A stretch of 64,000 bases of DNA from NCBI GenBank assembly GCA_965214605.1, contig OZ243961.1, forward strand, positions 553,917 through 617,916, read 5' to 3'. The notes beneath the pieces are model-generated. The model searched no databases. It saw only the letters and a program-made list of their open reading frames with translations, and had not been told where the DNA came from. This document shows positions 1-45,433 of the stretch, one piece after another. The number at the start of each line of letters is the position of its first letter. Position 1 is the stretch's first letter. This DNA is from an uncultured Candidatus Binatia bacterium (lineage in GTDB: Bacteria; Desulfobacterota; Binatia; Bin18). Both the position numbers and the translations under genes were made by a program.

Positions 1-166
1 ATGCCGGCCGACCGCCTAATACCACCGGACGGTTTTCCCGCCGGACAAACCATACTTTTGCCATCCCGATTTTCCTTGCAGCGTCGCGCCTAAAGCCGTC
101 CTTCAGTTGCCAGCTTCTAGGTAAGGTGATAATGGTGGCCGGACCGAGCAGACGGAGGTTGGTGTC

Positions 167-436
167 ATGAAACAGAATACTCATCCACAAGAATACAGAC
201 CGGTTGTTTTTCAGGACGCATCGGCACGATATGCCTTTCTGACCCGGTCGTGTGTGGAAACACACGATACCATCGAATGGGAAGATGGCAAGAGCTATCC
301 CCTATATAAACTCGATATATCTAGTGCTTCCCATCCTTTCTATACCGGGAAACAGCGTATCGTTGATACCGCCGGGCGGGTCGAACGTTTCCGCCGCCGC
401 TACGGGCTCAAGCATGAAGCCCAGGCCGAAGACTAG
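167..436 (+). CDS. rpmE: 50S ribosomal protein L31
   Basis: 89 aa; HPFYTGKQR...GRVERF C-terminal motif typical of L31. Confidence 0.85.
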
Positions 437-549
437 CTCTCCCTCCGTACTCCTGCCCGACAATACACATAAGGGACCCCTCCTCCCATCACTTGTGTGT
501 ATTGCTCGTGTCCATCCTCCATCGGCCCACTAAAAACCGAGGCGTCGGT

Positions 550-1632: not shown

Positions 1633-1651
1633 GCCGAAGACGCCCCACCTC

Positions 1652-2527: not shown

Positions 2528-2571
2528 GCGCTTAGACGAACCCGGTCGAGAGGCGATGATGGGGGGAGGCG

Positions 2572-3870: not shown

Positions 3871-5258
3871 CGGTTCCCCTACTCAACACATCTGATCCGG
3901 CCTGCGCACGCCGTCTAGACAGCCTGTTCACCAGGGGTGAACAGGCTAGCGATCGGGTTGAAGCCGAGGTCCGGGCGATTTTACAAGACGTCAAACGCCA
4001 GGGAGACCGGGCACTGATCGCCGCCACCAAAAAGTTCGATCGGGTCCGTCTACGCCGTGACACCTTGCGTGTCACCGATCGGGAACTTGACGCGGCGCTA
4101 GCTGGCCTGCCACGGTCCGAACGGACCGCCCTGCAGACCGCTGCCCGACGGATTGGCGCTTTTCACCGCAAACAGCGCCAATCCTCATGGCACTACACGG
4201 ACCGGCTGGGCGTTGGCCTGGGACAGAAAATTACCCCGCTGGAACGGGTCGGCGTGTATGTTCCGGGCGGCAAAGCCGCCTACCCGTCTTCTGTGCTGAT
4301 GAATATCATTCCGGCCAAAGTCGCTGGAGTAGAAGAAGTCGTGGTGGTCTCCCCGCCCTCAGCAGACGGCGAGCACTCAGGTCCGCAACCAGGCGTGCTG
4401 GCCGCGGCTCGTCTGGCCGGGGCCGATACGGTGTTTCGGCTGGGCGGTGCTCAGGCCATTGCCGCCTTAGCCTACGGAACCCAGAGCGTTCCCCGTGTGG
4501 ATAAGATTGTCGGGCCAGGCAATATTTTTGTCGCCACGGCCAAGCGGCTGGTCTACGGTCAGGTTGATATTGATAGCGTGGCGGGTCCAAGTGAGATTCT
4601 GGTGATTGCCGATAGCACGGCCTCAGCCAGCTATATTGCGGCCGATATGCTGTCCCAGGCCGAGCATGACGAAATGGCAGCCCCGCTGTGTCTGACCACC
4701 TCGACACGGCTAGCTGAAGCTGTCGTCGAGGCGCTGAAAGGCCAATTGGCCACGCTCGCCCGCCGTACGATTGCTGCCGCATCGCTCAAGCGCTATGGAG
4801 CGGTGATCGTCGCTCGCGATCGAGCTGAGGTCGTGCGGCTGGCCAATGCCTTAGCCCCCGAACACGTTGAGCTCTTGGTCAAAAATCCACGTTCGTGGCT
4901 GAAAGATATCCGCCACGCTGGCGCCATCTTTGTGGGTGCCTTGTCTACCGAGCCCTTTGGCGACTATATTGCTGGGCCAAACCACATCCTGCCGACTGGG
5001 GGAACGGCACGGTTTTTCTCCCCGCTCGGCGTGTACGATTTTCTCAAGCGAACCAGTATTATCGAGGCATCGGCTCCGGCGTTGCGTAAGCTTGGTCCGC
5101 ACGTTATGCGTCTGGCCGCCATGGAGGGGCTAGAGGCCCATGCTCGGGCAATTGCCTATCGTCTCAACGGAGGCCACTATGACACGGCCAGCAACACCCT
5201 ACAGCCAAGAAAGAGCACCACGCGCGACAACCCTGCATCGCGAAACAAACGAAACTGA
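3867..5258 (+). CDS. hisD: histidinol dehydrogenase
   Basis: 463 aa; SQAEHDEMAAPL and Zn/NAD-binding regions; ATGA overlap with murA stop; 3' end is ~30 aa longer than typical and overlaps hisB. Confidence 0.85.
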   Translation: MTVPLLNTSDPACARRLDSLFTRGEQASDRVEAEVRAILQDVKRQGDRALIAATKKFDRVRLRRDTLRVTDRELDAALAGLPRSERTALQTAARRIGAFHRKQRQSSWHYTDRLGVGLGQKITPLERVGVYVPGGKAAYPSSVLMNIIPAKVAGVEEVVVVSPPSADGEHSGPQPGVLAAARLAGADTVFRLGGAQAIAALAYGTQSVPRVDKIVGPGNIFVATAKRLVYGQVDIDSVAGPSEILVIADSTASASYIAADMLSQAEHDEMAAPLCLTTSTRLAEAVVEALKGQLATLARRTIAAASLKRYGAVIVARDRAEVVRLANALAPEHVELLVKNPRSWLKDIRHAGAIFVGALSTEPFGDYIAGPNHILPTGGTARFFSPLGVYDFLKRTSIIEASAPALRKLGPHVMRLAAMEGLEAHARAIAYRLNGGHYDTASNTLQPRKSTTRDNPASRNKRN

Positions 5259-5802
5259 CATTCGGCTCAGTCTTGAGCTTGATGGGAGCGGTCAGTACCA
5301 GGTCACTACCGGCGTGCCCTTTCTCAACCATATGCTGGAATTGTTCACCCGGCATGGATTTTTTGATCTCACACTCCAGGCTACGGGCGACGTCGAGATT
5401 GATGACCATCATACGGTTGAGGATATCGGACTAGCGCTAGGCGAAGCCTTTCGCATCGCGCTGGGTGACAAACGCGGTATTCGTCGCTTTGGCGAAGCCA
5501 GCGTGCCACTTGACGAAGCCCTAGTGAACTGTGTCGTCGACCTCAGCGGGCGGCCCTTCTTGGCGTATAATCTGTCCGTCCAGCAGGAACGGATTGGAAC
5601 GTTTGCGACCGAGCTGATCCACGACTTTTTTCTGGCCTTTAGCAACCAACTCGGCATGAATCTGCACTTCAACATGACCCAGGGCCGCAATCCGCACCAT
5701 ATTATCGAAGCCGCCTTTAAGGCGTTTGCGCGAGCGCTAGGCAGTGCGGTCGAGTATGACCAGCGCGTAAAAGGGGTGTTATCAACGAAAGGGGTGTTGT
5801 GA
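5179..5802 (+). CDS. hisB: imidazoleglycerol-phosphate dehydratase
   Basis: RETNETDIRLSLELDG ... LNHMLELF ... DDHHTVEDIGLALGEAF motifs; start at MTRPATPY gives 80-bp overlap with the hisD ORF. Confidence 0.8.
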   Translation: MTRPATPYSQERAPRATTLHRETNETDIRLSLELDGSGQYQVTTGVPFLNHMLELFTRHGFFDLTLQATGDVEIDDHHTVEDIGLALGEAFRIALGDKRGIRRFGEASVPLDEALVNCVVDLSGRPFLAYNLSVQQERIGTFATELIHDFFLAFSNQLGMNLHFNMTQGRNPHHIIEAAFKAFARALGSAVEYDQRVKGVLSTKGVL

Positions 5803-6039
5803 AGCAGAGTTGATGAGGAGGTCTCAGACGCGGGGCCCTAAGACTCTCTCAGCCGTAGCCTTGCTCAATTGAAGGCTGCCCGCTCCACCCTGGACCAACA
5901 GAGCAGCGCGGTTTCATATATTGAGCTGCACCAAACGGCGCGCTCTCGCGCAGAGTGCGACCGGCGGCAACTTGACGTGGGAGAAGCCCGCCGAGCCGAA
6001 CGCTCACAGAGGTCCTAACTGGACTAGTCACGCTCAGGG

Positions 6040-6081
6040 CCTCACGCCTAGGACCGGCCCAGACGTGAGGGATGTGTTTTT
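6040..6081. terminator. hairpin plus T-run between convergent hisB and LLM genes
   Basis: CCTCACG-N17-CGTGAGG followed by GATGTGTTTTT. Confidence 0.4.
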
Positions 6082-6112
6082 AACGCCTTAGAAGAGATTG
6101 CATACCCTAAGT

Positions 6113-7186
6113 TCAATCCGGAAAATTGGACATGACTTCTTCCATCAGCATGCGCTGTGAGTTTTCCCAGCCCTCTCGATTCTCCAGTTGATCAAAGGTC
6201 AGGACCAGCAAACAGCCAAACCCGCCGGTGTCTTCAACCATCGCTCCCAGCTTATCGGTAACCGTTCGGGGGGAACCGACCAGCCATACGTACTCGGCCA
6301 GGTATTCCATAGTAACATCGGAATCCGGCACTTCGGGGTGGTGTTTGAACAGGCTGAGCATGCCAAACGACTTGAAGAGTGGCAGCAAATACTCGCTGTA
6401 GACACGGGCCAGCATGCCGTTGAGGGCCTTGTCCTTGGCTTCTTTGTCGGTTTCGGCGATATACACCTCACGCGACACGCGCCAGTCGCTGCGGGAAGCT
6501 CCCCGCCCAGCAGACTCCGCCCCCTCGACAACCGCTTCCCAGTGGGTTTTGAGATAGCCATTGCTCAGCGCGACGCTCATCGGCATAAAACCGCTCGCAC
6601 CACACATCTTGAGGGTGTCCGAGCCAGGCGTCAGACCGGCAATCCCAATCGGTGGATGGGGCTGTTGAAAGGGCTTGATGTGGAACTTGAGGGTGTCCAA
6701 CATCGTGTCAATCCGGTTGACCGTCCAGTAGTTACCTTTAAATTCAAACGGCTCTTCGCTCTCCCACAGTTTGAGAATAATATCCAAAGCCTCTTTGGTC
6801 ATACGCCGGTTCTCGCCACCTGCCCCATCGACGTTGAATAGCTTCCAGTCGCTGGGCAGCCCACTCGTCCCCACCCCGAACATAAACCGTCCCTGGGCGA
6901 TGTGATCCATAAAGGCGACGCGATGGGCGAGTTCGGCCGGATGGTGATAGGGAAGCAGATGGGCACCTGGACACAGCTTGATATTCTGGGTGCGTTGCAA
7001 GCCTTGCGCAATCAGCAGATCAGGGGCGGGGTTGGGCTCCCACGGAGCAGTAAAATGCTCACCCAGCCAAGCTTCGTGGAAACCTAACTTGTCGACCAGT
7101 TCCAGATGGTCGAGATCCCACTGGTGACCGTCATAGAAACTTCTTTCGGGCGGATGCGAAGGCATCATAAACACGCCAGCTTTCAT
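6113..7186 (-). CDS. LLM-class (luciferase-like) flavin-dependent oxidoreductase
   Basis: 357 aa; TIM-barrel LLM signature regions (GFHEAWLGEHF..., NPxP, GxGxS). Confidence 0.7.
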   Translation of the reverse strand: MKAGVFMMPSHPPERSFYDGHQWDLDHLELVDKLGFHEAWLGEHFTAPWEPNPAPDLLIAQGLQRTQNIKLCPGAHLLPYHHPAELAHRVAFMDHIAQGRFMFGVGTSGLPSDWKLFNVDGAGGENRRMTKEALDIILKLWESEEPFEFKGNYWTVNRIDTMLDTLKFHIKPFQQPHPPIGIAGLTPGSDTLKMCGASGFMPMSVALSNGYLKTHWEAVVEGAESAGRGASRSDWRVSREVYIAETDKEAKDKALNGMLARVYSEYLLPLFKSFGMLSLFKHHPEVPDSDVTMEYLAEYVWLVGSPRTVTDKLGAMVEDTGGFGCLLVLTFDQLENREGWENSQRMLMEEVMSNFPD

Positions 7187-7564
7187 ACGTCCTCCTTAAG
7201 AGACACCTTATTTCTTCCTCATAACTTCATCCTGGGCGTCACGCAAGGCCTACCGGAGCCATGCCAGGAAGCTTGCACGGCGTTTAATGAGGATGCTGCG
7301 GGGGACCGGTCGCTGCTCCCCCGCAGAAGAACAGCCTCGAAGCTCGCGATTCGGAAAACAAGCCGGGGGCGCCGGACGACGAGCATATCCAGGGGTTGTG
7401 TCCGGGGAACCGGGGCGTCAATTGTGCCGGGGCGGAGGAACAGGAACTTTCACTATTACCTGACTCGCCGCTACAAGCTCTACGCTCTTTAAACTCCGCC
7501 GGTTCGCCTGCTGTGTCACTCTAGCCACCTATTGTCTTCACGTCCAAACGGAGGAAACCGTCCC

Positions 7565-8495
7565 ATGCAACGACTCCGCTTCACCATCTTGATCCTGACC
7601 TTGGCCGGGTGGGTCATTCCCCGATCGTATGGCCCGGCGGTTCACCGTGGCTCCCGGCTCCTTCATCCGGAAATATCGCCGTGTCCTACACCTAGACGGC
7701 AGACGACTACCTCCGTAAGACCTCTCCAACCAGCTCGGTCAAGACGGTCTCGACACCGGGGGCAAAAACCTCTAGCAGCACACCATCTGGTTTGATGTCA
7801 ACTATGGCTTGTTTGAGTCGGCCGCTCTTGATACACGCCTAGGATATGCAGAGAGTCATATGGTTGCCGATCCGATCAAAGAACGCAGCCCCAGCGGCCT
7901 GGCCGACGTGAGCTTCGGCGTCACCTACCGCCTGCTTGACGAGATGATTAGCGAGAACGAGCTGCTGCCAAGTGTGGTCCTGCGTCTCGGCGGGCTCATT
8001 GGCGGCGACTACGAAACGGGCGCGATCAATTCGCTTGGCGATGGCGGCGACGGGTTCGAGATTTCGGGCTTGGCCGGAAAGTTTTTCGCCGACTGCTTCG
8101 CCCTGTCCGCCGAGCTCGGTTCCCGTAACCGCAATAATGACATCCCGGACAACCTGTTTTTGAGGCTGTCCGGCGGCGTCCTGTGGAACCGCTTAGGGCT
8201 GAGCATCAACTATGAGCGTATCGACACGCCGTGGGGCAGCCTAGATATTGGCTCGGGCGAGTCCCCCGGCGTCTTTATCCCAGCCCGATTTCCTGAGGTG
8301 AAAGAAGAGCTGCAACTCCTCGGTGGCGGTCTCAGCGTCGCACTCACTGACCAGATTACCCTTGGTCTGGCCTATACTGCCGTCGTTGACGGCCGCACCA
8401 CTGCCGATTCTGACGTGTTCAGCGTGTCGCTCGGTTACTCCGTTCGACACCTTCTGAGCAGGGGTGTAACTTCAACGCTGACGTCGCCCGGATAG
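7565..8495 (+). pseudogene. outer-membrane beta-barrel protein, apparently frameshifted between signal peptide and barrel
   Basis: signal peptide MQRLRFTILILTLAGWVIP at 7565 in frame 2; beta-barrel-like body (alternating G/aromatic strands) at 7809..8495 in frame 0; C-terminus does not end in an aromatic residue. Confidence 0.35.
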
Positions 8496-23289: not shown

Positions 23290-24834
23290 GTGCGAGCCAT
23301 GGCTCAAACGGAGGAGTTTGCTGGGCTGCCGACGCACAGCGATGTTATCGTGGCCGGCGGCGGACCGGCCGGAGCGACGATCGCCCGCCTGTTATCGGGC
23401 TATGGCCTGCGGGTTGTGGTGCTGGAAAGACACACGTTGCCCCGTTATCAGATCGGCGAATCGCTTACCCCGCGTATTCTGCCCATTTTTGACTTTCTCA
23501 ACATTCGTGCCGAGGTTGAGCGGGCCGGCTTTTTGCCCATTGCCGGCCACACGGTGTGCTGGGGGGAGGCTCAGCCACGCACGACGTATTACAGCCCGGA
23601 CCATAGCCGGCGCGGCTTGCAGGTCTGGCGAGCGGATTTTGATGTCCTGCTCCTAGATCAGGCCCGGCAGGCCGGGGTGCAGGTCTTTGAAGGCCAGGCG
23701 GTTGAGGCGGTCAGCCTGGCCCAGGACAGCGCCGCGGTGCAGGTGCGGACCGCGTCCCAACACCGCATCATGGCAGACTTCTTTATTGACGCGACCGGTC
23801 GCAGCGGGCTGCTGGCACGCCAAGGCTTACGCCGGCGTAATCGTCGCTTTCAGACCCTGGCCCTGACCGCCTATTGGCAAAACGTGGCCGAGCCCGCAGG
23901 CATTGATCGCGGCAACACGCTGATTGAAGCCTACGCCAACGGCATGGTGTGGTCTCTAGCCTTGCATACTGGGCTGAGGAACGTCACGCTGCTGGTCGAC
24001 TGGCGGGCGGGGTCTGACATCCGACGGACTAGCGTGGCCGATTGCTACTACGCGGAGCTTGGGAAAGCCCCCTACATCTCCGGCCTGTTGGCAGGGGCCC
24101 AGATTGCCACCCCACCCCGTGCCACCGACGCCACCCTGTACACCGCGACGCAGTTTGGTGACCCTCGCTTTTTACTCGTGGGAGATGCCGGGCTGTTTAT
24201 CGATCCGCTGTCCTCTGAAGGTGTCCACAAAGCCATGGCCTCAGCCATGACCGGGGCGGTGGTGGCCAACACTCTTCTTCGGCGACCGGCCATGCGGTCC
24301 CATGCGCTCAGCTTTTACGAACGGCGTCAGCGCCAAACCTATATCTCGCACTACCATCAGTCGCTCGCCTATTATCGGCAGGAACAACGCTGGCCCAAGT
24401 CTGCCTTTTGGCGCGCCCGAGCGAGCGAAACTCCCGCCCAGGAGTTCTCGTCCCCTCCACCTGTCTCCCGTCCCCCCGCCTCCCGCAAACTGTCGCACCT
24501 CCAATGGGCACCCGGCGTGTCTGTCCAGCAGCGACCAACAATCGCGGGGACCTATGTCAGCCTGCAGGACACGGTTATCGCCCCCCACTATCCCGATGGC
24601 GTCCGCTTTCTGGATCGGTTATGCCTGCCGACCGTACTCAAAATCATGGCCCAACAGCCCGCTATCGGCGATATTATCTCCGCCTATCTGCACCATCCGG
24701 ATGGACGGGGCTGTCCGCCCGAAGCGGTTCGACAGGGTTTAGCCCGCTGCTTTCAGGAAGGGATTGTGGTCGAGGCGGGGCACGCGGCGGTTCAGCGGGC
24801 TTCGGTCGATGCTTCGGCATTCACCAAACGATAA
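23290..24834 (+). CDS. qhpG: FAD-dependent monooxygenase (QhpG-type)
   Basis: N-terminal FAD dinucleotide motif IVAGGGPAGATIARLL...VLERH; GD motif LVGDAGLFIDPLSSEG. Confidence 0.7.
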   Translation: MRAMAQTEEFAGLPTHSDVIVAGGGPAGATIARLLSGYGLRVVVLERHTLPRYQIGESLTPRILPIFDFLNIRAEVERAGFLPIAGHTVCWGEAQPRTTYYSPDHSRRGLQVWRADFDVLLLDQARQAGVQVFEGQAVEAVSLAQDSAAVQVRTASQHRIMADFFIDATGRSGLLARQGLRRRNRRFQTLALTAYWQNVAEPAGIDRGNTLIEAYANGMVWSLALHTGLRNVTLLVDWRAGSDIRRTSVADCYYAELGKAPYISGLLAGAQIATPPRATDATLYTATQFGDPRFLLVGDAGLFIDPLSSEGVHKAMASAMTGAVVANTLLRRPAMRSHALSFYERRQRQTYISHYHQSLAYYRQEQRWPKSAFWRARASETPAQEFSSPPPVSRPPASRKLSHLQWAPGVSVQQRPTIAGTYVSLQDTVIAPHYPDGVRFLDRLCLPTVLKIMAQQPAIGDIISAYLHHPDGRGCPPEAVRQGLARCFQEGIVVEAGHAAVQRASVDASAFTKR

Positions 24835-25352
24835 TCGCGGACCAAATCGTCCAACAGCACGCCCAAGGCGTCTTCAACGCTGTGGACAAAACTGTTCCGC
24901 AAGGTCAGGGCTAGTTTTCCCTCGGCCCAGGTTGGCGCCAGCATCGTCATCTGCTCGGTCCGGGTCAGGCGGACAATCTGGCGGACTTCCACATCTAGAC
25001 AGTAGGCCAATACCCTGCTCGAATGCTCAACACTGTGCAGTGACACGACCAGCACGGTCGGAAAATCACCTACCTGAAAAGCCGCCCGACGCAGCCGCTT
25101 GTTGGCGACGCCTCGGAGTCGGACACGGTCCATGCCCAGGGCGCGGGCCGTCCGACTCACCGAGCCGATCTCAAGCTGAAAGCCCCTCACGCCATACAGG
25201 GTTGTTGCGTCCGCCCCGGCGTTCAGTCCCAGGGCCGGGGACAGCACCAGCAGCAGGCTTAGTCCCAGACCCAGCACCCACAGGCCCGCCCGGTCAGGAT
25301 GGGCGGGTTCCGAGTGCGCTTCCTCAGATCGCTTCGCTCCACCCTTTTCCAT
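24792..25352 (-). CDS. hypothetical membrane-anchored protein (weak MlaD/MCE-like resemblance)
   Basis: N-terminal TM helix then ~140 aa soluble domain; no confident family assignment. Confidence 0.3.
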   Translation of the reverse strand: MEKGGAKRSEEAHSEPAHPDRAGLWVLGLGLSLLLVLSPALGLNAGADATTLYGVRGFQLEIGSVSRTARALGMDRVRLRGVANKRLRRAAFQVGDFPTVLVVSLHSVEHSSRVLAYCLDVEVRQIVRLTRTEQMTMLAPTWAEGKLALTLRNSFVHSVEDALGVLLDDLVRDYRLVNAEASTEAR

Positions 25353-25373
25353 ACTCGGCCCTCGGCCACGTCC

Positions 25374-25823
25374 TCATCTCTGTCCCCCCTGTTCCTTCTC
25401 ATACTGCAGTCGGACCGCCTTCTCAATCAAACCGAACAGCCGGTCTTGTTTTTCAGCGGAGAGAGAATGGATCGATTTTTGGATTAATTCAGCGCTCTGC
25501 TGCAAATCGCGCGCGCTCGCCTCAGCCCCTTTTTGGGAGAGAACGACAAAGGCATGGCGCTCGTGTTCGGGCAACCCCTGCAGGGCCTCGTCGTACAAAC
25601 GAGCCATCTCTTGTTGTTCGGGTGGGGACAGCAGCTGGCGGCCGAGGCGGGACAGCTCAATGCCCCGGCGGGCGGCGGGCACGCCGGGTTCTTCCAGGAT
25701 CTTGCGCCAGCCCTCTCTGGGGACCGGGCGAGAGTTCCAGGCAAAAATTATCAAGACGCTCGCCACGGCCACAAAAGCCAACACTAACCAAGAGCCGCGT
25801 TTGGATGCAGACGTGCCTGCCAT
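25374..25823 (-). CDS. hypothetical membrane-anchored protein
   Basis: single N-terminal TM (WLVLAFVAVASVLIIFAW) followed by helical soluble region. Confidence 0.35.
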   Translation of the reverse strand: MAGTSASKRGSWLVLAFVAVASVLIIFAWNSRPVPREGWRKILEEPGVPAARRGIELSRLGRQLLSPPEQQEMARLYDEALQGLPEHERHAFVVLSQKGAEASARDLQQSAELIQKSIHSLSAEKQDRLFGLIEKAVRLQYEKEQGGQR

Positions 25824-25903
25824 GACTGTTCATTAAAGGACTTTCAGCCGACCGACAAGGGCGGCTGGCCGTTCCCGAACACCCAGGCTATGCTCTCAAC
25901 ACC

Positions 25904-35506: not shown

Positions 35507-37687
35507 ATGGCCGACGTAGCTGCTCACATCCCCAGCGTGCACACCTACCGCACCCAGGGTGGGATTGATATTCGTCGCAGCATTGAAAGTATCCCACTTC
35601 AGGACGCTATCGAGCCAATCATTGACGGTCTCAATAGTCAGCGCGGCGTCCTTTTGGCGTCAAGCTATGAGTATCCGGGCCGCTATACACGCTGGGACAT
35701 CGGCTTTGTCAATCCCCCCCTATCCCTGAGCTGTCGACAACGAAAATTTCGGCTGTCGGCCCTAAACGAACGCGGCCAGATTCTCCTGCCAGGGCTAGCG
35801 CGGGCATTTGAGGCCCTGCCCGTACTCGCCTCGTCTGAGCGTAACGAGAGTCACATATCAGGCACGGTTCGGGAGGTGGAGAGCCGTTTTGCCGAAGAGC
35901 AACGCAGCAAACAGCCCTCGATCTTTTCGCTGCTCCGAGCGCTCATTGAGCTGTTTGCGTCGGATGAGGACGCCAATCTTGGGCTGTATGGCGCCTTTGG
36001 CTATGATCTGGCCTTTCAGTTCGAACCCCTGCGCCTTCACCTCACCCGCCCCGAAGAGCAACGCGACCTGGTGTTGTATATTCCCGATGAACTAATCGTG
36101 GTTGACCACCGCCGCGAACAGGCGCTGCGCTATCGCTACGATTTCGAGCTTGACGGGCGCTCCACCTACAATTTGCCCCGGGTTGGAACGAGCCAACCCT
36201 ACCAGGGAACAGGTACCGTTGCTCAGGCCTGCGACCATCAACCGGGTGAATACGCCGAAGGCGTTCGGGTGGCCCGCCAAGCATTCCAGCGCGGCGACCT
36301 GTTTGAGGTCGTGCCGGGTCAGACCTTTTTTGAGGTCTGTCCTACGCCGCCCTCAGAACTGTTTCGACGTCTGCGTGAGCGCAATCCATCCCCGTACGGA
36401 TTTCTGATCAACCTCGGCCAAGCCGAATACCTAGTTGGCGCGTCCCCCGAGATGTACGTCCGGGTGGAGGGCGACCGGGTGGAGACCTGCCCGATTTCCG
36501 GCACAATCGCCCGCGGTCGGGATCCGATCAACGATGCCAGCCAAATCTTGCGGCTGCTCAACTCCCGCAAAGACGAGTCTGAGCTGACCATGTGTACAGA
36601 TGTTGACCGCAACGATAAATCCCGGATCTGTCAACCGGGTAGCGTACGGGTGATTGGGCGGCGACAGATTGAGATGTATTCGCGACTGATTCACACGGTC
36701 GATCATGTTGAGGGTCGCCTACGGCCCGAGTTTGATGCCCTGGATGCGTTTTTGGCCCACACCTGGGCGGTGACGGTCACCGGTGCGCCAAAAGCGTGGG
36801 CCATGCAGTTTATTGAGGAGCACGAAAAATCACCCCGCGCCTGGTACGGCGGGGCCGTCGGTCTGCTCGGCTTTAATGGCAATATGAATACAGGGCTCAC
36901 CCTGCGTACGATTCGGCTCAAAGACGGCGTGGCCCAAGTCCGAGCCGGGGCCACCCTGTTATACGACTCCAACCCGGACGATGAAGAACGCGAAACCCAT
37001 ATCAAAGCGTCTGCCTTCTTGGATGCTATTCGTCGCCCGAGTGAAAGCCAAGGCGAGCGGTCGTTGGAAGTCGCTAGCCCAGGCCGGGGTAAACGGATTC
37101 TGCTAGTCGATCATCAAGACTCTTTTGTGCATACCTTGGCCAACTATTTGCGTCAGACCGGGGCCGAGGTCTTGACCCTCCGAGCCGGTTTTTCGCACCA
37201 TGAATTTGAGGCCCGGCAACCTGACCTCGTCGTCCTGTCGCCCGGTCCAGGCCAACCGTCGGATTTTGATGTTTCCGGCACTTTGGCGGCCGTACTTGAA
37301 CGCCAGCTGCCCGTTTTTGGCGTGTGTCTCGGTTTACAGGGTATTGTCGAGCACTTCGGCGGCGAACTGTCCGTGCTGCCTTACCCAATGCATGGCAAAG
37401 CGTCAGCCGTGCGGGTGGTGGGCGGACGGATTTTTGAGGGCCTCCCGCGCGAGCTCACGGCAGGCCGCTATCACTCTCTGTTCGCCCGCAAAGACCGGCT
37501 GCCCTCCCAACTCCACATCACCGCGGAGAGCGATGATGGTGTGATCATGGCGGTTGAGCACCGTGAGCTGCCGATTGCCGCTGTCCAGTTTCATCCCGAG
37601 TCTATTTTGACTCTGGATGAAGACTATGGCCTGCGCCTGATGTATAACGTGGTAGTCAGCCTATGCGCCGACGCAGGCCTTCCCTAG
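35507..37687 (+). CDS. trpE: anthranilate synthase, fused component I/II TrpE(G)
   Basis: 726 aa; N-terminus matches rhizobial-type TrpE(G) (GGIDIRRS...SYEYPGRYTRWDIGFVNPPL); C-terminal class-I glutamine amidotransferase (GVCLGLQG). Confidence 0.85.
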   Translation: MADVAAHIPSVHTYRTQGGIDIRRSIESIPLQDAIEPIIDGLNSQRGVLLASSYEYPGRYTRWDIGFVNPPLSLSCRQRKFRLSALNERGQILLPGLARAFEALPVLASSERNESHISGTVREVESRFAEEQRSKQPSIFSLLRALIELFASDEDANLGLYGAFGYDLAFQFEPLRLHLTRPEEQRDLVLYIPDELIVVDHRREQALRYRYDFELDGRSTYNLPRVGTSQPYQGTGTVAQACDHQPGEYAEGVRVARQAFQRGDLFEVVPGQTFFEVCPTPPSELFRRLRERNPSPYGFLINLGQAEYLVGASPEMYVRVEGDRVETCPISGTIARGRDPINDASQILRLLNSRKDESELTMCTDVDRNDKSRICQPGSVRVIGRRQIEMYSRLIHTVDHVEGRLRPEFDALDAFLAHTWAVTVTGAPKAWAMQFIEEHEKSPRAWYGGAVGLLGFNGNMNTGLTLRTIRLKDGVAQVRAGATLLYDSNPDDEERETHIKASAFLDAIRRPSESQGERSLEVASPGRGKRILLVDHQDSFVHTLANYLRQTGAEVLTLRAGFSHHEFEARQPDLVVLSPGPGQPSDFDVSGTLAAVLERQLPVFGVCLGLQGIVEHFGGELSVLPYPMHGKASAVRVVGGRIFEGLPRELTAGRYHSLFARKDRLPSQLHITAESDDGVIMAVEHRELPIAAVQFHPESILTLDEDYGLRLMYNVVVSLCADAGLP

Positions 37688-37808
37688 CAGACGCCCCACA
37701 GTCGCGTCGCTGGGCAGAGGCAGGCCGCACGGATTGCCAGGCGACCCGACTCACTCCGGCTCGGTCACCGGGGTCCAGGCAGCCACTCCCGGCACCGCAA
37801 CGAGCAGG
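37599..37808. repeat. direct repeat copy A (3' end of trpE(G) plus 3' end of an MFS-like frame), ~85% identical to 41678..41886
   Basis: direct sequence comparison in this window. Confidence 0.8.
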
Positions 37809-38300
37809 TCCCAGAATGCGGCTGGTTCGTCGAGGTCGAAAATCAGTGGGGGAATGCTGGGGCCGTGGCGGTGGATGTGCCACTCCAAACCGGTGGTAAA
37901 AGCGATACGGGCATCGAACCCGGTGGTTTCCCTGATGATTTGAGCCGCGTGTTTCGTGTCGCTGAGGTTGCCTGACGGCTGACACCTCAGCAGTATGGCC
38001 GGTGTGCCGCCGGAGTATAGTGTGTAACTTCCCGGGTGCTCTGGCGACGGTTCGCGATGCGCAGCGGTGAATCCAATGGCGTCCAGTATGGGATTGATGA
38101 CGGCTTCTTGGGTGATGCCTGTCGAACGTTGCAGGTTGATGTCGCGCTGAGCGGCGGCGTTCTGGGCGTCGGCGATGGTCTGAGTCAGTGCCGCGCGGTG
38201 CGCTTCGGCGCGATGCTTCGCATCGTCTTGATGGTGTGATCTTCGTGCATTGTCCCTTTTGCTCCTTCGCTTCCAGTGGACTCGTGATGTAGTAGTGACG
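37753..38300 (-). pseudogene. restriction-endonuclease-like (HsdR N-terminal/Mrr-like) domain ORF lacking a canonical start
   Basis: frame with no ATG reads ...INPILDAIGF...AILLRCQPSGNLSD...IAFTTGLEWHIH..., resembling the type I R-subunit N-terminal domain family; C-terminally in-frame with the MFS-tail copy VAVPGVAAWTPVTEPE. Confidence 0.3.
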
Positions 38301-38764
38301 CCGGCAGTCCTGCCGTATCACAGGCGCATAACGATTCGCAAAAATCCCAGGCGCCGATTCTGTGCTTGCGCTCCGATCGGCGCCGGCTTGATACCTTCCC
38401 TTGGGGTCGGCGACTCTTTGCCTTCGTCTTGCTCTTGTGCTGTTCTGAGCAGCGGAATCGCCTGATTCTATGGTTGCCGGTACCGGGGGATGGTACAGTT
38501 TTGGCCGCGGCAGGACGGGCAAGTCGAAGGCTGGGGCGGTCTGTCTGTCCTGCCGGGTCTGTCGGTTGCGCTCTCTTTGCCAATATCCGTAGCAGATCCG
38601 TCGTTGGCAGACTGCGCAGCGTGGGCCGGCTGGGTCGGCATGGTCGGCTATTGGGGCAGGTGTGGCAGATGATGATGTCGTCGGCTATATGTCCTCTCTG
38701 GTAGGGCTGTGCAAAGGCTATCCGGGTCATGCAGTGTGTGGACGAATTGAGTGCGAGCTTCGGA

Positions 38765-39935
38765 AACGGTTTTCGTTTGGCTCGCGGCGGCACGGCAGTT
38801 GCTCTGGTTTACGGAGGGCGGGATTGCGTGCTCCCGGGATGGCGTCACGCGGGGATTGCATCCCCCTCTCATCTCCAGCTAGTATCCGCAACAGGGGGGC
38901 ATCGCCCATGCCCAAGAGGTTTGAGGACACGACGAGATCCATGATCCGCCCCGTGCAGACGTCAAAATCAATGAACCTGAACTTGGTGCGCCGGCCTGTT
39001 CCGGCAACTCAACGCGCAGCAACCGCTCAGCGTTTCGCACGGCAAACAGCGCAGCAACCTGCGCGCTAGGACGGAGAGAACGACCATGAGCGCTACACTG
39101 AGCCCCGCAGAACGCGCCCGCTTTCTCCAGGCGCTGAAGGAGGACTCCGACTTCCGCGAGGCGGTACGCCAGCACCTCCTGAGCGACGCACTGCTGGAAC
39201 TGCCGGAAAAATTCGCCCAGTTCGCCGCCTACGTCAACGAATTTATCGCCAACACCAACGAATTTATCGCCAACACCAACAAATTTATCGCCGACCAAAA
39301 GGCATTCAATACCCGCACCGAAGAACGCCTGGACCGGATTGACGACCGTCTGGACCGTGTTGAAGGCCGTCTGGACCGTGTTGAAGGCCGTCTGGACCGT
39401 GTTGAAGGCCGTCTGGACCGTGTTGAAGGCCGTCTGGACCGGATTGACAACCATCTGGACCGGATTGACAACCGGCTGGACCGGATTGACGACAGCATCG
39501 GCATCCTGAAAGGCAACGCAGCGCGACGTCTGCTCAGAGATCACCTCGAAGGCGTCCTAGAACTCGTAGGCGTAGAGGATTTCGTAAGAATCCTGTCCAG
39601 CAGCGACCTGATTCGCCTGATGCGCACCTCAGGCATGGCTCGCGAGATACCCTACGGAGAACGGCGGAGTTTCTATGCCGCCGATCTGGTCATCGAAGCC
39701 GCCGACGCAACGGGTGCCCCCTGTTATATCACGGCCGAGGGGTCCTTCACCGCGGATAAGCGGGACAGCAGCCGGGCGATTCGGAATGCCGCATTCCTGA
39801 CCCGGCTTACCGGCCACCCGGCCTCCCCTGTCGTTGCCAGCATGAGGAACGACTACGAAGTGCAAGAGCTGGTCAATCAGGAAACCATCCGCTGGTTCCA
39901 GCTGGACGAGCGGGACCTCGAAGCGGATTAGGACG
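38765..39935. repeat. tandem duplication unit 1 (~1.2 kb: 320-bp leader plus repeat-protein gene)
   Basis: near-identical to 39995..41095 apart from internal 21-bp repeat copy number. Confidence 0.8.
39086..39931 (+). CDS. hypothetical protein with variable heptad (21-bp) tandem repeats and conserved C-terminal domain, copy 1
   Basis: 281 aa; (FIANTNE/K)x2 ... (RLDRVEG)x4 (RLDRIDN)x2 coiled-coil repeats; C-terminal ~150 aa identical to copy 2. Confidence 0.6.
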   Translation: MSATLSPAERARFLQALKEDSDFREAVRQHLLSDALLELPEKFAQFAAYVNEFIANTNEFIANTNKFIADQKAFNTRTEERLDRIDDRLDRVEGRLDRVEGRLDRVEGRLDRVEGRLDRIDNHLDRIDNRLDRIDDSIGILKGNAARRLLRDHLEGVLELVGVEDFVRILSSSDLIRLMRTSGMAREIPYGERRSFYAADLVIEAADATGAPCYITAEGSFTADKRDSSRAIRNAAFLTRLTGHPASPVVASMRNDYEVQELVNQETIRWFQLDERDLEAD

Positions 39936-39994
39936 TGATACGATCGCCGTGCCGCGGCCAGCCAAATTCCAGCAAGTGCTTATAGCACCGGTTC

Positions 39995-41095
39995 GCTTTG
40001 GCCAGCGGTTTTCGTTTGGCTCGCGGCGGCACGGCAGTTGCTCTGGTTTACGGAGGGCGGGATTGCGTGCTCCCGGGATGGCGTCACGCGGGGATTGCAT
40101 CCCCCTCTCATCTCCAGCTAGTATCCGCAACAGGGGGGCATCGCCCATGCCCAAGAGGTTTGAGGACACGACGAGATCCATGATCCGCCCCGTGCAGACG
40201 TCAAAATCAATGAACCTGAACTTGGTGCGCCGGCCTGTTCCGGCAACTCAACGCGCAGCAACCGCTCAGCGTTTCGCACGGCAAACAGCGCAGCAACCTG
40301 CGCGCTAGGACGGAGAGAACGACCATGAGCGCTACACTGAGCCCCGCAGAACGCGCCCGCTTTCTCCAGGCGCTGAAGGAGGACTCCGACTTCCGCGAGG
40401 CGGTACGCCAGCACCTCCTGAGCGACGCACTGCTGGAACTGCCGGAAAAATTCGCCCAGTTCGCCGCCTACGTCAACGAATTTATCGCCAACACCAACGA
40501 ATTTATCGCCAACACCAACAAATTTATCGCCAACACCAACAAATTTATCGCCAACACCAACAAATTTATCGCCAACACCAACGAATTTATCGCCGACCAA
40601 AAGGTCTTCAATGCCCGCACCGAAGAACGCCTAGACCGGATTGACGACAACATCGGCATCCTGAAAGGCAACGCAGCGCGACGTCTGCTCAGAGATCACC
40701 TCGAAGGCGTCCTAGAACTCGTAGGCGTAGAGGATTTCGTAAGAATCCTGTCCAGCAGCGACCTGATTCGCCTGATGCGCACCTCAGGCATGGCTCGCGA
40801 GATACCCTACGGAGAACGGCGGAGTTTCTATGCCGCCGATCTGGTCATCGAAGCCGCCGACGCAACGGGTGCCCCCTGTTATATCACGGCCGAGGGGTCC
40901 TTCACCGCGGATAAGCGGGACAGCAGCCGGGCGATTCGGAATGCCGCATTCCTGACCCGGCTTACCGGCCACCCGGCCTCCCCTGTCGTTGCCAGCATGA
41001 GGAACGACTACGAAGTGCAAGAGCTGGTCAATCAGGAAACCATCCGCTGGTTCCAGCTGGACGAGCGGGACCTCGAAGCGGATTAGGACGTGATA
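39995..41095. repeat. tandem duplication unit 2
   Basis: see unit 1. Confidence 0.8.
40325..41086 (+). CDS. hypothetical protein with variable heptad tandem repeats, copy 2
   Basis: 253 aa; (FIANTNE/K)x5 and no RLDRVEG block; otherwise identical to copy 1. Confidence 0.6.
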   Translation: MSATLSPAERARFLQALKEDSDFREAVRQHLLSDALLELPEKFAQFAAYVNEFIANTNEFIANTNKFIANTNKFIANTNKFIANTNEFIADQKVFNARTEERLDRIDDNIGILKGNAARRLLRDHLEGVLELVGVEDFVRILSSSDLIRLMRTSGMAREIPYGERRSFYAADLVIEAADATGAPCYITAEGSFTADKRDSSRAIRNAAFLTRLTGHPASPVVASMRNDYEVQELVNQETIRWFQLDERDLEAD

Positions 41096-41677
41096 CGACC
41101 GCCGTGCCACCGCATATTTGCCGGCTGGCGCCACCACCGGACAAGTGAGCGGTGCCAGCCGTTCCCGAAACGGCCGCGCAGTTGCCGGAACCACCCCTGC
41201 GATTTCGCGGGTGTCTCAAATAATCAGACTGAATTTCAGGAGACATCACTATTCAGCGCTGAGTCGCGAGGTCTAGCCCGTAGCGTTCCGCTGATTGTGC
41301 CGTCGGGAGACTGCTCGGCCGGGGAGGCGCTGGCGAGCTGTGGTTCGGGGAGGCTGTCGCCATCGGCGAACATCCAGACCACATCAATGGGGTAGGCGTT
41401 GTTGGTGAGTACCACGTTGCGCAACGCCGTCTTGAGGTCCTCGGGCACCATATCGCGGCGTCCGTGCTGATAGGGGCGCCGGGATGAGAGCCGGGGCCGC
41501 CTACTGTGGCGTGTGTCCTTGTTTGGGGACGACGAGGAGTGTCGGGGGGAGAGGCGTGGAGTGCCTGTGGGCAAAATCTCTCGCTTTGATGCCGGGGGGG
41601 CCGGCGGGCTGCCCCGTTTGGGTGGCTGGGGACTGCCCGCGGACTGCCGGGCCGGCGATTAGGTGATGAGCCCGCCG

Positions 41678-41886
41678 AGTCTATTGTGACTCTGGATGAA
41701 GACGATGGCCTGCGCCTGAGGTATAACGGGAGCGCTGGCCGAGGCGCCGCCGCCGGCCTTCCCCGGCAGACGGCCCCCAGGCGCATCGCCGGGCAGAGAC
41801 AGGCCACACGGATTGCCCGGCGCCCCGCCTCACTCCAACTCGGTCACCGGGGTCCAGGCAGCCACTCCCAACACCGCAACGATCAT
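41678..41886. repeat. direct repeat copy B (degraded trpE(G) 3'-end copy plus the authentic MFS 3' end)
   Basis: aligns to 37599..37808; trpE tail reads VTLDEDDGLRLRYNGSAG... instead of LTLDEDYGLRLMYNVVVSLCADAGLP*. Confidence 0.8.
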
Positions 41887-43107
41887 CAGCCCGCTGGTGG
41901 CCGCGCAGGTGAGAAGAGGGCCGAGCCAATCGACCAGGACCCCAGCCAGCGGCGCCCCGATCAGGCCGGTCGTTCCCATAAACCCGAGGGTGTAGACCGA
42001 CAGGATCCGAGCCCGGTGGGAGGGCCGCGCCTGCTCTTGGAACACCGTCCGGCCGGCGCTCATAAAAATAGAGGCGCTCGTCCCCCATACCCCCACCACT
42101 AGCAAGGCTCCCCAGAAGGGCAGGCCAAACGACAGACTGCCAATGCAGCCGGCCCCGACGACCAGTGCCGTCACTTGGGCTCGTCCCTTACGCCGGATCC
42201 CACCGCGCCACAGGATGGTCCCTGCGCCAAAGATCGTGCCTAGTGGAAAGGCCATATTGAGCGTGGCGAGCTGAGCCACGTCGCCGCCATAGAAGTCCCG
42301 GACCAGCAACGGCAGGACGACCAGATAGGGACCGATAAAGCCGACCCCGACCACCATCACCAGTAACTGGAGTGGACGTAGGACCGGCGACCCAAAGACC
42401 TCCCGAACGCCCGCAACAAGGTCGCTCAGGCGAGCCCGCGTCTGCCCTGCTGTACTGCGTAACGATGGGGGGGGAAGTTTGCGCAACGTGGGCGCTCCAG
42501 CCAGCAAAACGAGCCCATGCATACACAGGGCCGGGACAATCCCCAGCCAACGCGCGCTGCCGGCCAAGAGCGCCCCCAGTGCTTGCGATGCCCACTGCGT
42601 CAGCGTCATACCAGCAACCGCCCGGAGCATGTTCGGTCCGGCAACTTCTGACAGCAGGGCGTCACGTGCCGGCATGGCAAACGCCTGCACCGTGCCCATA
42701 CCCAGGGCATAGCCAATCAGCAGGCTCATCGACAGCCAGCCCTTGGCCACAACGGCCACCAAACACCCGGACAGGGTGGCGGCGACGAGGTGTAGCCCAA
42801 TCAATAGCGTCCGACGATCGTTGCGGTCGGCCACCATCCCGCCGAGCAGAACCAGCAGGGTCGAGGGCAGCATGAGCGCGCTCTGGGCAATACCGACCCA
42901 ATCGGCATCGGCCTGCAAAACGCCGACAACCAACCATGAAAACAACACGCCCTGCATGCCAAAGGCGGTAAACCACGAGCCAAGGCCGGCCACGAACCAC
43001 AGGTAGAAGACCGGTTGCGAAGATGAGGAGGTTATGACCCGCCGCCCGGCGAGGGCGGGATGTGCTTGTTCATCGACCGTGAGTTTAACCGGGGGTGAGC
43101 TTGGCAC
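41830..43107 (-). CDS. MFS transporter
   Basis: 12-TM pattern, 425 aa. Confidence 0.75.
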   Translation of the reverse strand: MPSSPPVKLTVDEQAHPALAGRRVITSSSSQPVFYLWFVAGLGSWFTAFGMQGVLFSWLVVGVLQADADWVGIAQSALMLPSTLLVLLGGMVADRNDRRTLLIGLHLVAATLSGCLVAVVAKGWLSMSLLIGYALGMGTVQAFAMPARDALLSEVAGPNMLRAVAGMTLTQWASQALGALLAGSARWLGIVPALCMHGLVLLAGAPTLRKLPPPSLRSTAGQTRARLSDLVAGVREVFGSPVLRPLQLLVMVVGVGFIGPYLVVLPLLVRDFYGGDVAQLATLNMAFPLGTIFGAGTILWRGGIRRKGRAQVTALVVGAGCIGSLSFGLPFWGALLVVGVWGTSASIFMSAGRTVFQEQARPSHRARILSVYTLGFMGTTGLIGAPLAGVLVDWLGPLLTCAATSGLMIVAVLGVAAWTPVTELE

Positions 43108-43128: not shown

Positions 43129-43914
43129 TTATTGCTCTTCGTACCACTGGATTGCGCCCCGCAGCCCACGCTCTTTTCTGACGCGCCGAATCTCGTCATT
43201 GCCCGAGCCAAAGTGAAAAATGGCATCATATTCGGCGCCCGCCAGAACCGTGCTCCGAAAGCCTTGCAGATCCATGGCGCGGTTGATCGCCAATTTCTCC
43301 AACCGCAGCTTTTCCGCCGGCACCTTGGCCACCCGCCGGGCGTACCGATAGGTTTCGGCCTCCAGAGCGTCGGCCGGAAAGGTCCGGGTGGCAAAACCCA
43401 TGGCCTCGGCCTCTTTACCGCTGATCTGACTGCCTGGCAAAAACGCCATATATTTGGTCCGGTGCGGCCCGACCATCCAGTTCCACATTGAGCTCACAAA
43501 GCCCGCCCCGGCGGGGAGCGAGGGAAAGCCGAGTCGGGCATCGTCGGCCATGAAAATGACATCCGAGCAGGCACAGATCTGACTCGCCCCGGCCAGGCAG
43601 TAGCCATGGACCATGGCAATCACCGGCTTGGGCAACTCGCGCAGGCTGAGCCAACGTTCAATCATTGTTTGGAGTTCGGTTCGGTCGCCATCAACGGTTT
43701 TCGCTCCCCCGCCGCCGGCCAGGTCATAGCCGGCCGAAAACGCCCGTCCAGCGCCCCGAATGATAAGGACTTTGATCTCCTCATCGCAACCAGCCAAGGC
43801 AATTGCCTGAGAAAATTCGTCTAACAACGCCGGGTTCATGGCGTTCAGCTTCTCGGGTCGATTGAGCGTCAGCGTTCCGATCCGGTCCTGTTTGTCCAAG
43901 AGTACCAGGTCCAT
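43129..43914 (-). CDS. enoyl-CoA hydratase/isomerase (crotonase family)
   Basis: MDLVLLDKQDRIGTLTLNRPEKLNAMN; oxyanion-hole blocks. Confidence 0.8.
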   Translation of the reverse strand: MDLVLLDKQDRIGTLTLNRPEKLNAMNPALLDEFSQAIALAGCDEEIKVLIIRGAGRAFSAGYDLAGGGGAKTVDGDRTELQTMIERWLSLRELPKPVIAMVHGYCLAGASQICACSDVIFMADDARLGFPSLPAGAGFVSSMWNWMVGPHRTKYMAFLPGSQISGKEAEAMGFATRTFPADALEAETYRYARRVAKVPAEKLRLEKLAINRAMDLQGFRSTVLAGAEYDAIFHFGSGNDEIRRVRKERGLRGAIQWYEEQ

Positions 43915-44082
43915 AAGCCCCTCCCGTGCAGACCGTCCTTTGGCTTTTCCCCGCTCTGCACTTGTCCAGCCAAGCATTCAGAACCGTCTGAGTCTAGAGG
44001 CCCCGAGGCCGGACACGCCTAGCGCGCTTGCATAACACACAAAAAACCGGACATAATCCGCCGCCAAACAGGAGGAAACACG

Positions 44083-44700
44083 ATGAGCGAATCTACACTT
44101 CCCGAAGCCTGGGTCCGTATCCCGACCGAAGCCCAAGTTCGAGCAAAACTTCCGACAGGGACAAAGACAGGGCCGTACGATTTTGGCTTTGTGCCGGCCA
44201 TGGGGCGCCTGCTGAGTAGCCACAGCCGGATCGGTCCGCACTTCATCAATCTGTACAGAGAAATTATGTTCGCACCAGGCCAGCTCAGTCGCCAGGAACG
44301 CGAGATGATTGCCGCCGTCACTGCCGTAAGCCAAGACTGCTCCTATTGAACCAACTCTCACGTAGAGTTTCTGCGTGTGGAAACCGGGAATAGTCATTTG
44401 GTTGAGGCGATTCGCGCCAAGCAATGGCGTGAGCTGTCAAGCCTAACGGCCCGGCAGCGAGCCCTGTGTAGCCTAGCCGAGAAACTGAGCGCCAGCCCGA
44501 CCCGTATGATCGAGGCAGACTGGCAGCCGCTCCGCGAGCTAGGCTTCGACGATGAGGCGTGTTTGGAAGTCGCCCATATTGTCGGCATTTTTAATTATCT
44601 GACTCGCTTAGCCGACGGTTTTGGCCTACAGCTCGACGCCAAGATCCAGCAGGCCGCGGCAACAGGCGTGGCGCTTGGCCCCCCATCCCAATCAGTCTGA
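44083..44700 (+). CDS. AhpD-like/carboxymuconolactone-decarboxylase-family protein with in-frame TGA (candidate selenocysteine) at 44347
   Basis: ORFs 44083..44349 and 44377..44700 are one reading frame; junction reads VSQDCSY-TGA-TNSHVEFL, i.e. the family's C-x-x-C-x-x-x-H core with TGA at the second Cys. Confidence 0.55.
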
Positions 44701-44721: not shown

Positions 44722-45433
44722 ATGGCGGCCTATGCAATTGGCGATGCCCAGGGCTGCTTTGCCGGTCCGATGGCGCTGTCAGAGGCGATTTGTTTCAATC
44801 GGAGGCGCCATACTCTGTGGTTTACGGGCGACCTAGTCAATCGGAGGCCTGACTCGCTTGGGATCGTGCGCTTTGTCCCCGACCCCGTCCCACGGACGGG
44901 ATGGAGCCTGAGGGACCATGGCCTCCATCTGCTAGCCGTTGCCCACGGTCAGCGCAAACTGCATCCTAAGGATACGCTGAGGGATATCCTCGAAACGCCC
45001 GACCGTGATATACTGCTTGACTGGCTCCGACACAGTCCTCTGCTACACCACGACGAGGTTACCCCTGATGACCACCGATCATAGTTCACTCTGCGAAAAT
45101 CGGCGCGTCAGTCTAATCCACGCTGGTCTGCCACCGCGTTGGCCCCTAGCCGGGGTCCAACGCCACGCCCGAGCGGTCGAAACCGGTCTACAGGGACCCG
45201 ACTTGGCCGCTTGCCTGGTCGGGATCACCCACAAAACGTGCCGGACAACGCCTAGCGCTGTCCCCCCCTCGCCTTCCCCTACCACCACCTGCTTGACCCG
45301 AAGCTGCTCCTATAGTGCCGAGGGGGTGCTTGACGTAGTGTACAAGGGTCCGTTGGGGACGCAGCCCTGCCTGCCGTGGTTTGCCGCGCCATACCAGGCC
45401 CACGCCGGCCAAGAGATTATCTTTGGCCACTAG
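44722..45433 (+). pseudogene. apaH: bis(5'-nucleosyl)-tetraphosphatase (symmetrical) ApaH, frameshifted and C-terminally truncated
   Basis: N-terminal 120 aa (AIGDAQGC...LWFTGDLVNRRPDSL...LLDWLRHSPLLHHDE) in one frame, C-terminal ApaH blocks (LIHAGLPPRW..., LPWFAAP...EIIFGH) in another (45005..45433), ending prematurely. Confidence 0.6.

Follow-up and report, generated by a model that had tools for sequence, protein, structure and literature searches.

A predicted selenocysteine codon and SECIS-type hairpin in an AhpD-like gene of a Candidatus Binatia bacterium

In a 64,000-nucleotide stretch of DNA from an uncultured Candidatus Binatia bacterium (contig OZ243961.1; the whole stretch is called the window below), two open reading frames (ORFs) lie in the same frame and are parted only by a TGA at 44347-44349. 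Does this codon end a gene, mark an inactivated one, or direct the insertion of selenocysteine (Sec)? An earlier note on this DNA had pointed out the pair, and direct reading and translation confirm it: the upstream ORF (44083..44349, + strand) starts with ATG and specifies 88 aa, the downstream ORF closes at 44698-44700, and read-through gives a product of 205 residues (...AVSQDCSY-(UGA)-TNSHVEFLRVE...) in which the UGA is residue 89. We conclude with high confidence that the UGA is a Sec codon in an ordinary member of the AhpD-like family (TIGR01926, CxxU), and that the gene encodes a 205-residue thiol/selenol oxidoreductase. The parts of the gene on which the argument turns are as follows.

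44070..44075, + strand: AGGAGG, Shine-Dalgarno-like, 7 nt 5' of the ATG, as read from the sequence.
44083..44700, + strand: full coding sequence of the predicted AhpD-like selenoprotein, 205 residues with Sec 89 and terminal stop TGA at 44698-44700, from translation, TIGR01926, PF02627 and the collinear ortholog L001.
44302..44304, + strand: codon of Glu74, the proton-relay Glu, 12 residues before Cys86, in an invariant alignment column.
44338..44340, + strand: TGC codon of Cys86, the first (resolving) Cys of C-x-x-U, invariant in the alignment and in all 79 homologous loci.
44347..44349, + strand: UGA, predicted Sec codon, residue 89, at the second, nucleophilic Cys position of the AhpD CxxC and aligned with the Cys of homologues.
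44359..44361, + strand: CAC codon of the proton-relay residue His93, with which the hairpin stem also begins; the residue is invariant and the codon is CAC in 100% of Sec-type sequences.
44359..44377, + strand: predicted bacterial Sec insertion sequence (SECIS) hairpin, with 5' arm 44359-44366 CACGUAGA, loop 44367-44369 GUU and 3' arm 44370-44377 UCUGCGUG.

Family membership and the in-frame UGA across phyla

Profile searches of the window protein, run with Cys put in place of the UGA, place it in TIGR01926 'peroxidase-related enzyme' (NCBIfam; 126.9 bits against a cutoff of 81.8, residues 9-181, profile positions 1-172 of 178) and above the cutoff of the AhpD core-domain model TIGR00778 ahpD_dom (30.9 against 27.8 bits); the match to the Pfam carboxymuconolactone decarboxylase (CMD) model PF02627 spans residues 54-102 only. 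The AhpD core E-x11-C-x-x-C/U-x3-H is present as Glu74, Cys86, Tyr88, UGA89 and His93, all invariant in the alignment. The earlier note had read the product as carrying an AhpD-family redox core with the UGA at the second Cys of CxxC, and had called AhpD-like proteins a recognised selenoprotein family with Sec at that Cys; the TIGR01926 match and the alignment with Cys homologues bear out the first statement, and the literature on CxxU proteins of TIGR01926 the second. Two other assignments were rejected. Against NF041238 (AhpD_rel_CFYUT) the score is 65.6 bits where the cutoff is 175, with the match confined to profile positions 215-343 of 357, and the protein is not a gamma-carboxymuconolactone decarboxylase (PcaC) in the strict sense, as it carries the CxxC/U relay; gamma-CMD enzymes are without a CxxC relay (PMC3141380).

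Homologous loci were collected by scanning one genome per species with the alignment of full-length homologues, and 79 loci were kept from 171 relatives. Of the two peptide patterns, the one able to find TGA forms, ERE[MI][VI]A..., sits 5' of the codon; the second calls for a codon for C, W or G, which TGA cannot satisfy. Of the 79 loci, 78 have TGA as the codon for residue 89 and L061 has TGC, a count that describes the relatives closest to the window protein rather than the whole superfamily. According to the earlier note, relatives with a different residue and no TGA at this site would speak against Sec; the TGA is retained in nearly all of them. The loci come from at least 7 phylum-level lineages: their record titles name Dehalococcoidia and other Chloroflexota, SAR202, Ca. 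Binatia, 'Deltaproteobacteria', SAR324, Gemmatimonadota, Acidobacteriota (Terriglobia, Thermoanaerobaculia, Holophagales), Vulcanimicrobiota/Ca. Elarobacter and Thermoleophilaceae. Because the same codon is TGA in all but one of these loci, which come from independent assemblies, the in-frame TGA is, on sequence comparison, not a chance event.

The alignment to Cys-containing AhpD homologues proposed in the earlier note was run, and the UGA column is Cys in P0001, P0002, P0003, P0008 and P0016 as well as in the solved structures 6K40 and 2OYO. Protein searches recover full-length homologues with Cys at the UGA position, such as P0001 (DCFYCTQSH), which is 61% identical to the window protein. 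They also recover full-length entries with W or G there (P0004, P0007, P0005), a residue that is the product of a gene caller applying code 4 or 25 to TGA, together with many fragments of 112-120 residues that begin just past the UGA position and others that stop at ...QDCHY. Four metagenomic calls (P0011, P0013, P0021, P0026) join the C-terminal half of one AhpD-like gene to the N-terminal half of a second copy, ending in ...QDCHY, which implies paralogues in tandem, every one with an in-frame TGA.

The closest ortholog, L001, lies in a Ca. Binatia metagenome-assembled genome; its protein is 83% identical in amino acid sequence and has the same length and the same terminal stop, with no indels. 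The two loci are collinear (a major facilitator superfamily (MFS) transporter, enoyl-CoA hydratase, the selenoprotein gene, apaH, a ferredoxin/cyclase gene, a luciferase-like monooxygenase and EthD), and the neighbouring proteins are mostly 80-93% identical, which indicates that the window belongs to a close relative of the L001 organism. Between the two selenoprotein genes the ratio of nonsynonymous to synonymous substitution rates (dN/dS) is 0.145 before the UGA and 0.195 after it, at a dS of about 0.5-0.7. Because of this low ratio downstream and the lack of indels, the part past the UGA is maintained as protein, and we regard a pseudogene and a sequencing error as excluded on this evidence. 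Besides that of the window, three Binatia-labelled genomes keep both the TGA and the hairpin described below (L001, L007 and L046, making four Binatia-type genes with that of the window).

The hairpin downstream of the UGA

When the 60 nt after the UGA were folded in every locus, the same hairpin emerged, CACGCAGA-GUU-UCUGCGUG, its arms at columns 13-20 and 24-31, where numbering begins with the U of the UGA. In the window it is encoded by the codons for His93-Val-Glu-Phe-Leu-Arg98 and the first base of the codon for Val99. Across 72 distinct sequences, 97.2% of hairpin cells are paired, as against 14-75% when the partners are slid. All stem substitutions that preserve pairing are wobble-compatible: a C to U change in the window gives U.G, and an A to G change in six sequences gives G.U. 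The U.G pair of the window arises from an Ala-to-Val change (GCA to GUA).

Selection on this hairpin is visible at synonymous sites. The six codons of the stem-loop (His-Ala-Glu-Phe-Leu-Arg) have a mean normalised synonymous entropy of 0.074, compared with 0.71 for the alignment's 79 other codons of equal conservation (Mann-Whitney p = 2.9e-5). Those frozen in the stem are TTT (99%, where the rest of the gene has about 85% TTC), CGT (97%) and GCA (92%), all rare or atypical for these GC-rich genomes. By contrast, five of six Cys-form (TGC) homologues break the hairpin with the ordinary codons GCC, TTC, CTC and CGG, which leave 4-6 of the 8 pairs. The sixth, L084 1241-1285 (= P0008), has a TGC and retains the exact hairpin CACGCAGAGTTTCTGCGTG; it is probably a recent Sec-to-Cys conversion with a fossil SECIS.

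The window hairpin fits all the criteria published for bacterial SECIS elements (PMC13188914), here set beside its own values.

Apical loop: published 3-9 nt; hairpin GUU, or A-GUU-U with the closing A-U.
Upper stem: published 4-16 bp; hairpin 8 bp.
G in the first two loop positions: required; present.
Distance from UGA to loop: published 16-37 nt; hairpin 17 nt.
Minimum free energy: published <= -7.5 kcal/mol; hairpin -11.3 kcal/mol, columns 10-36.

The SECIS candidate of the earlier note was a different hairpin, GTTTC at 44367-44371 with GAAAC at 44380-44384. It is present and does start 17 nt past the TGA, but the role proposed for it does not stand, as it is not conserved: the closing G-C pair of GUUUC-N8-GAAAC (44367-44384) is lost in 66 of the 72 sequences, and its cells are 78.9% paired, against 73.9% when slid by one base. 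The conserved hairpin overlaps it and sits further 5'. An extension of the conserved hairpin by a lower stem (columns 10-12 with 33-35) was also rejected; pair 12/33 is unpaired in 52 of 72 sequences, and the extension shows no covariation.

Of the 79 TGA-type sequences (the window and 78 loci), 55 share all 19 nt of the hairpin, and this identical form spans Chloroflexota, Binatia, Acidobacteriota, SAR324, Gemmatimonadota, Vulcanimicrobiota and Actinomycetota. Most bacterial SECIS elements are said to have no sequence in common. Such near-identity might mean that one Sec-gene cassette has repeatedly spread by horizontal transfer between bacteria of the soil and the subsurface, or that the hairpin has a role beyond SelB recruitment, ideas that we consider improbable.

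Decoding, catalysis and the alternatives

The hairpin starts 9 nt past the UGA and would present its loop G-U 17 nt from that codon. Since this is the standard bacterial mechanism, we predict SelB-dependent decoding, in which the hairpin would recruit SelB-GTP-Sec-tRNA(Sec) and Sec would be inserted at residue 89 in place of termination, with selABCD presumably encoded elsewhere in the genome. UGA is not reassigned genome-wide, because the gene's own terminator is a TGA.

Indirect support for Sec decoding comes from other genomes of the set. In about 20 Dehalococcoidia loci, ARAGORN places a tRNA-Sec (UCA) gene on the upstream side of the ortholog, at a distance of 7-9 kb (L004, L005, L014, L015, L026, L027, L030, L032, L033, L035, L036, L038, L044, L045, L048, L049, L050 and L053; in locus coordinates, the tRNA at about 150-3700 and the selenoprotein gene at about 10001). 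Dehalococcoidia are among the most selenoprotein-rich bacteria (BSepDB). No tblastn matches to SelA, SelB or SelD were found in these tRNA-Sec-bearing 20-kb loci. Among the other loci, a SelD-like match in L003 was set aside as a ThiL-type kinase by sequence, and a weak SelB match in L016 covers the GTPase N-terminus only (30% over 173 aa). A scan of the window for a second selenoprotein gene, made by joining same-frame ORFs across TGA, returned only shadow frames and adjacent genes; one such candidate, 25829..24792 (- strand), is two neighbouring genes.

Several observations weigh against our interpretation. No compensatory double substitutions occur in the hairpin across the 72 distinct sequences; the hairpin is too conserved for covariation to lend support, which comes instead from the synonymous freezing and the contrast with the Cys forms. 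Folded as a single sequence, the wider region shows no unusual stability (z = -0.85). Rfam yields no match for the whole window at gathering thresholds or for 44250-44500 at E <= 10, and whether Rfam models such elements was left unchecked. ARAGORN finds no tRNA genes in the 64-kb window, and so no tRNA-Sec, and tblastn with E. coli queries finds no SelA, SelB or SelD there; this absence says little, the window being 64 kb of a genome of several Mb. The adjacent apaH, intact in L001, is split in the window, a sign of local decay or of assembly error. Finally, there is no ahpC among the immediate neighbours of the gene (MFS transporter, enoyl-CoA hydratase, apaH, ferredoxin-cyclase, luciferase-like monooxygenase, EthD).

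What the enzyme would do can be approached through its relatives of known structure. The AhpD structure 6K40 in the Protein Data Bank matches the window protein with E = 2.6e-23 over residues 10-182, its C-x-Y-C-x-x-S-H aligned to C-S-Y-U-T-N-S-H, and the sequence also matches 2OYO, 2PFX, 3C1L and 2PRR. As a proxy for the fold, we used the AlphaFold model of the Cys homologue P0001 (pLDDT 93.8), which superimposes on 6K40, 2OYO, 2PRR and 3C1L with TM values of 0.78-0.81; the modelled proxy has the all-helical AhpD/CMD fold. The AhpD proton relay comprises Glu118/Cys130/His132/Cys133/His137 in M. tuberculosis and Glu36/Cys48/Tyr50/Cys51/His55 in PA0269 of P. aeruginosa (PMC3141380), and the spacing of Glu74/Cys86/Tyr88/Sec89/His93 in the window protein is identical to both. 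In the M. tuberculosis enzyme (MtAhpD), it is the second Cys, the exposed Cys133, that attacks Cys61 of AhpC, and Cys130 is partly buried (PMC6626918). Since the second Cys is the nucleophile there, Sec89 would occupy the nucleophile position. That position is the usual one for Sec in redox selenoproteins. By analogy, the target of the selenolate would be a peroxide or else a partner's sulfenic acid or disulfide; Cys86 would then resolve the adduct to an intramolecular selenenylsulfide, and an upstream reductant would re-reduce the enzyme.

The alternative that survives best is compatible with Sec decoding and concerns only function: the protein may be a stand-alone selenol peroxidase or another redox enzyme, such as a Bmp8-like dehalogenase or a reductase for another partner, rather than an AhpD that recycles AhpC. 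The missing ahpC neighbour favours it, as do the fold shared with the debrominase Bmp8 (TM 0.77), the weak intrinsic peroxidase activity of AhpD-like proteins (PMC3141380) and a family name that says just 'peroxidase-related enzyme'. Bmp8 is only about 17% identical, however, the full AhpD proton relay is conserved, and the solved structure nearest in relationship, from D. radiodurans, bears the annotation AhpD, so that we consider this reading possible if rather unlikely. The more specific proposal of a selenol-dependent enzyme that does not serve AhpC and acts on another substrate, for example in Bmp8-like dehalogenation, is as improbable in our estimation as the two accounts of the near-identical hairpin given above.

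The remaining alternatives deny Sec insertion altogether. If Sec decoding had recently been lost, the locus would be a relic yielding only an 88-residue fragment, or two polypeptides through a restart at GTG 44377, which opens a 107-aa ORF; many gene callers do annotate only the C-terminal half in homologues, but such half-length calls are the expected artefact of gene finders using code 11. Between the UGA and that GTG lie nine codons, catalytic His93 among them, whose conservation equals that of the rest, no motif resembling a Shine-Dalgarno sequence can be made out immediately ahead of 44377, the SECIS is intact with a single, wobble-compatible substitution, and the Binatia-labelled L001, L007 and L046 keep the Sec form, all of which makes a relic very unlikely. 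The earlier note had itself offered a nonsense-inactivated gene as its alternative, in which a TGC- or TGT-to-TGA mutation killed a Cys-type AhpD-like gene. The split apaH next door and the Sec machinery not seen in the 64-kb window are what it can call on, and we reject it as scarcely credible: the TGA is shared across phyla by 78 of 79 loci, the frame past it is open and without indels at a dN/dS of 0.195 against an ortholog at a dS of about 0.5, and the hairpin is held by selection at synonymous sites. Equally hard to credit is that the UGA specifies one of the standard amino acids (Trp or Gly through reassignment, Cys or Trp through near-cognate read-through), as the W or G of P0004, P0007 and P0005 might suggest, for these residues are gene-caller code choices, the selenoprotein gene ends in TGA as do the upstream enoyl-CoA hydratase (reverse-complement tca at 43129-43131) and MFS (41832) genes, the UGA column is a catalytic Cys and not Trp or Gly, the adjacent conserved hairpin fits a SelB-dependent mechanism, and tRNA-Sec genes lie near many orthologs.

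Flanking features and place among known selenoproteins

Around the selenoprotein gene, a scan for promoters and terminators found no sigma-70-like promoter. It did return a single terminator-like hairpin with a T-run at 44048-44060 (- strand), in the divergent intergenic region 5' of the gene, where such hits occur at chance-level frequency. On the 3' side, apaH (44722-45433, + strand) follows after 21 nt and is split over two frames, ORF 44722..45084 covering ApaH profile positions 1-112 and ORF 45005..45433 positions 112-227. Its metal-binding GNHD region reads RDHG, and there are about 40 extra nt near 45057-45095; the L001 gene is intact (276 aa, L001 10633..11463). The window apaH is either a pseudogene or the product of assembly indel errors.

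Two length differences separate the window from the syntenic L001 locus further upstream. About 4.1 kb of the window, at 37596-41885, is absent from L001; the stretch is flanked by 211-nt direct repeats (37596-37806 and 41675-41885, 85% identical) and contains two tandem units of about 1.2 kb, with 38767-39066 equal to 40006-40305 (100%) and 39460-39759 similar to 40615-40914 (97%). Each unit has an ORF (39086..39931 and 40325..41086) of 21-nt heptad repeats, GAAGGCCGTCTGGACCGTGTT, encoding (E-G-R-L-D-R-V)n; the first has weak coiled-coil Pfam matches only (DUF7310, XhlA), and the second has no Pfam match. Conversely, L001 carries about 2.3 kb extra (5251-7595) within the region that matches the MFS transporter gene of the window (41830..43107), which is contiguous in the window; an insertion in L001 is possible.

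The selenoprotein family itself has been described before. The Sargasso Sea study of 2005 introduced AhpD-like (COG2128) CxxU proteins as a new family of bacterial selenoproteins, giving 27 sequences and predicting a SECIS (PMC1088965); in GOS (2008), 'AhpD-like 1' ranked fourth in abundance among selenoprotein families, with 299 Sec sequences beside 902 Cys homologues (PMC2398784); and a 2026 review lists 'AhpD-like protein, TIGR01926, CxxU' (PMC13188914). The window gene shares with that family the profile family, the CxxU motif in which Sec takes the place of the second Cys, a SECIS-type hairpin that closely follows the UGA and has G in its small apical loop, and coexisting Cys forms. Nothing of substance differs: the window has Val (GUA) for Ala (GCA) in the H-A-E-F-L-R stretch, and its host is Binatia-like. 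Judged by its sequence, the gene has every feature of the family and is an ordinary member of an already known group. The related '(seleno)protein' family NF041238, the 'hypothetical protein 1' of the Sargasso study, has a CxYUT-type Sec motif and an AhpD-like domain and does not include the window protein.

Comparison with characterised systems places the gene further. M. tuberculosis AhpD (Rv2429) and PA0269 share the E-x11-C-x-[H/Y]-C-x3-H relay on a two-helix hairpin, their second Cys standing where Sec is predicted here; they are Cys enzymes, however, and M. tuberculosis ahpD lies in an operon with ahpC, so that, judged from its immediate neighbours, the window gene lacks the ahpC linkage of a canonical AhpC-partner AhpD of the M. 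tuberculosis type. MtAhpD also differs in chain topology and size, and the TIGR01926 type is closer to the closest solved structures, 6K40 (D. radiodurans) and 2OYO (D. geothermalis). These are of the same length class (about 190-200 aa) and carry C-x-Y-C-x-x-S-H, with Cys instead of Sec and about 29-30% identity. The E. coli fdhF SECIS, the archetype of the bacterial elements, is likewise a hairpin inside the coding region, immediately 3' of its UGA, whose apical loop carries an essential G-U. Its G23-U24 lie at nearly the same distance as G21-U22 of the window. The two have no sequence similarity, and the window hairpin, which is predicted only, has a tri- or pentaloop and a perfect stem of 7-8 bp with no bulged U. 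A search combining Binatia or Binatota with selenoprotein returned no relevant paper in the library consulted, only irrelevant word matches.

Gene callers split or truncate genes of this kind, and most database homologues are half-length or have W or G at the Sec position. The UGA followed by CACGCAGAGUUUCUGCGUG offers a signature by which this widespread redox selenoprotein could be annotated correctly, and that is the main value of the finding, which leaves knowledge of selenoproteins and of AhpD enzymes as it was. For the organism, the gene is indirect evidence that its Ca. Binatia-like host decodes selenocysteine.

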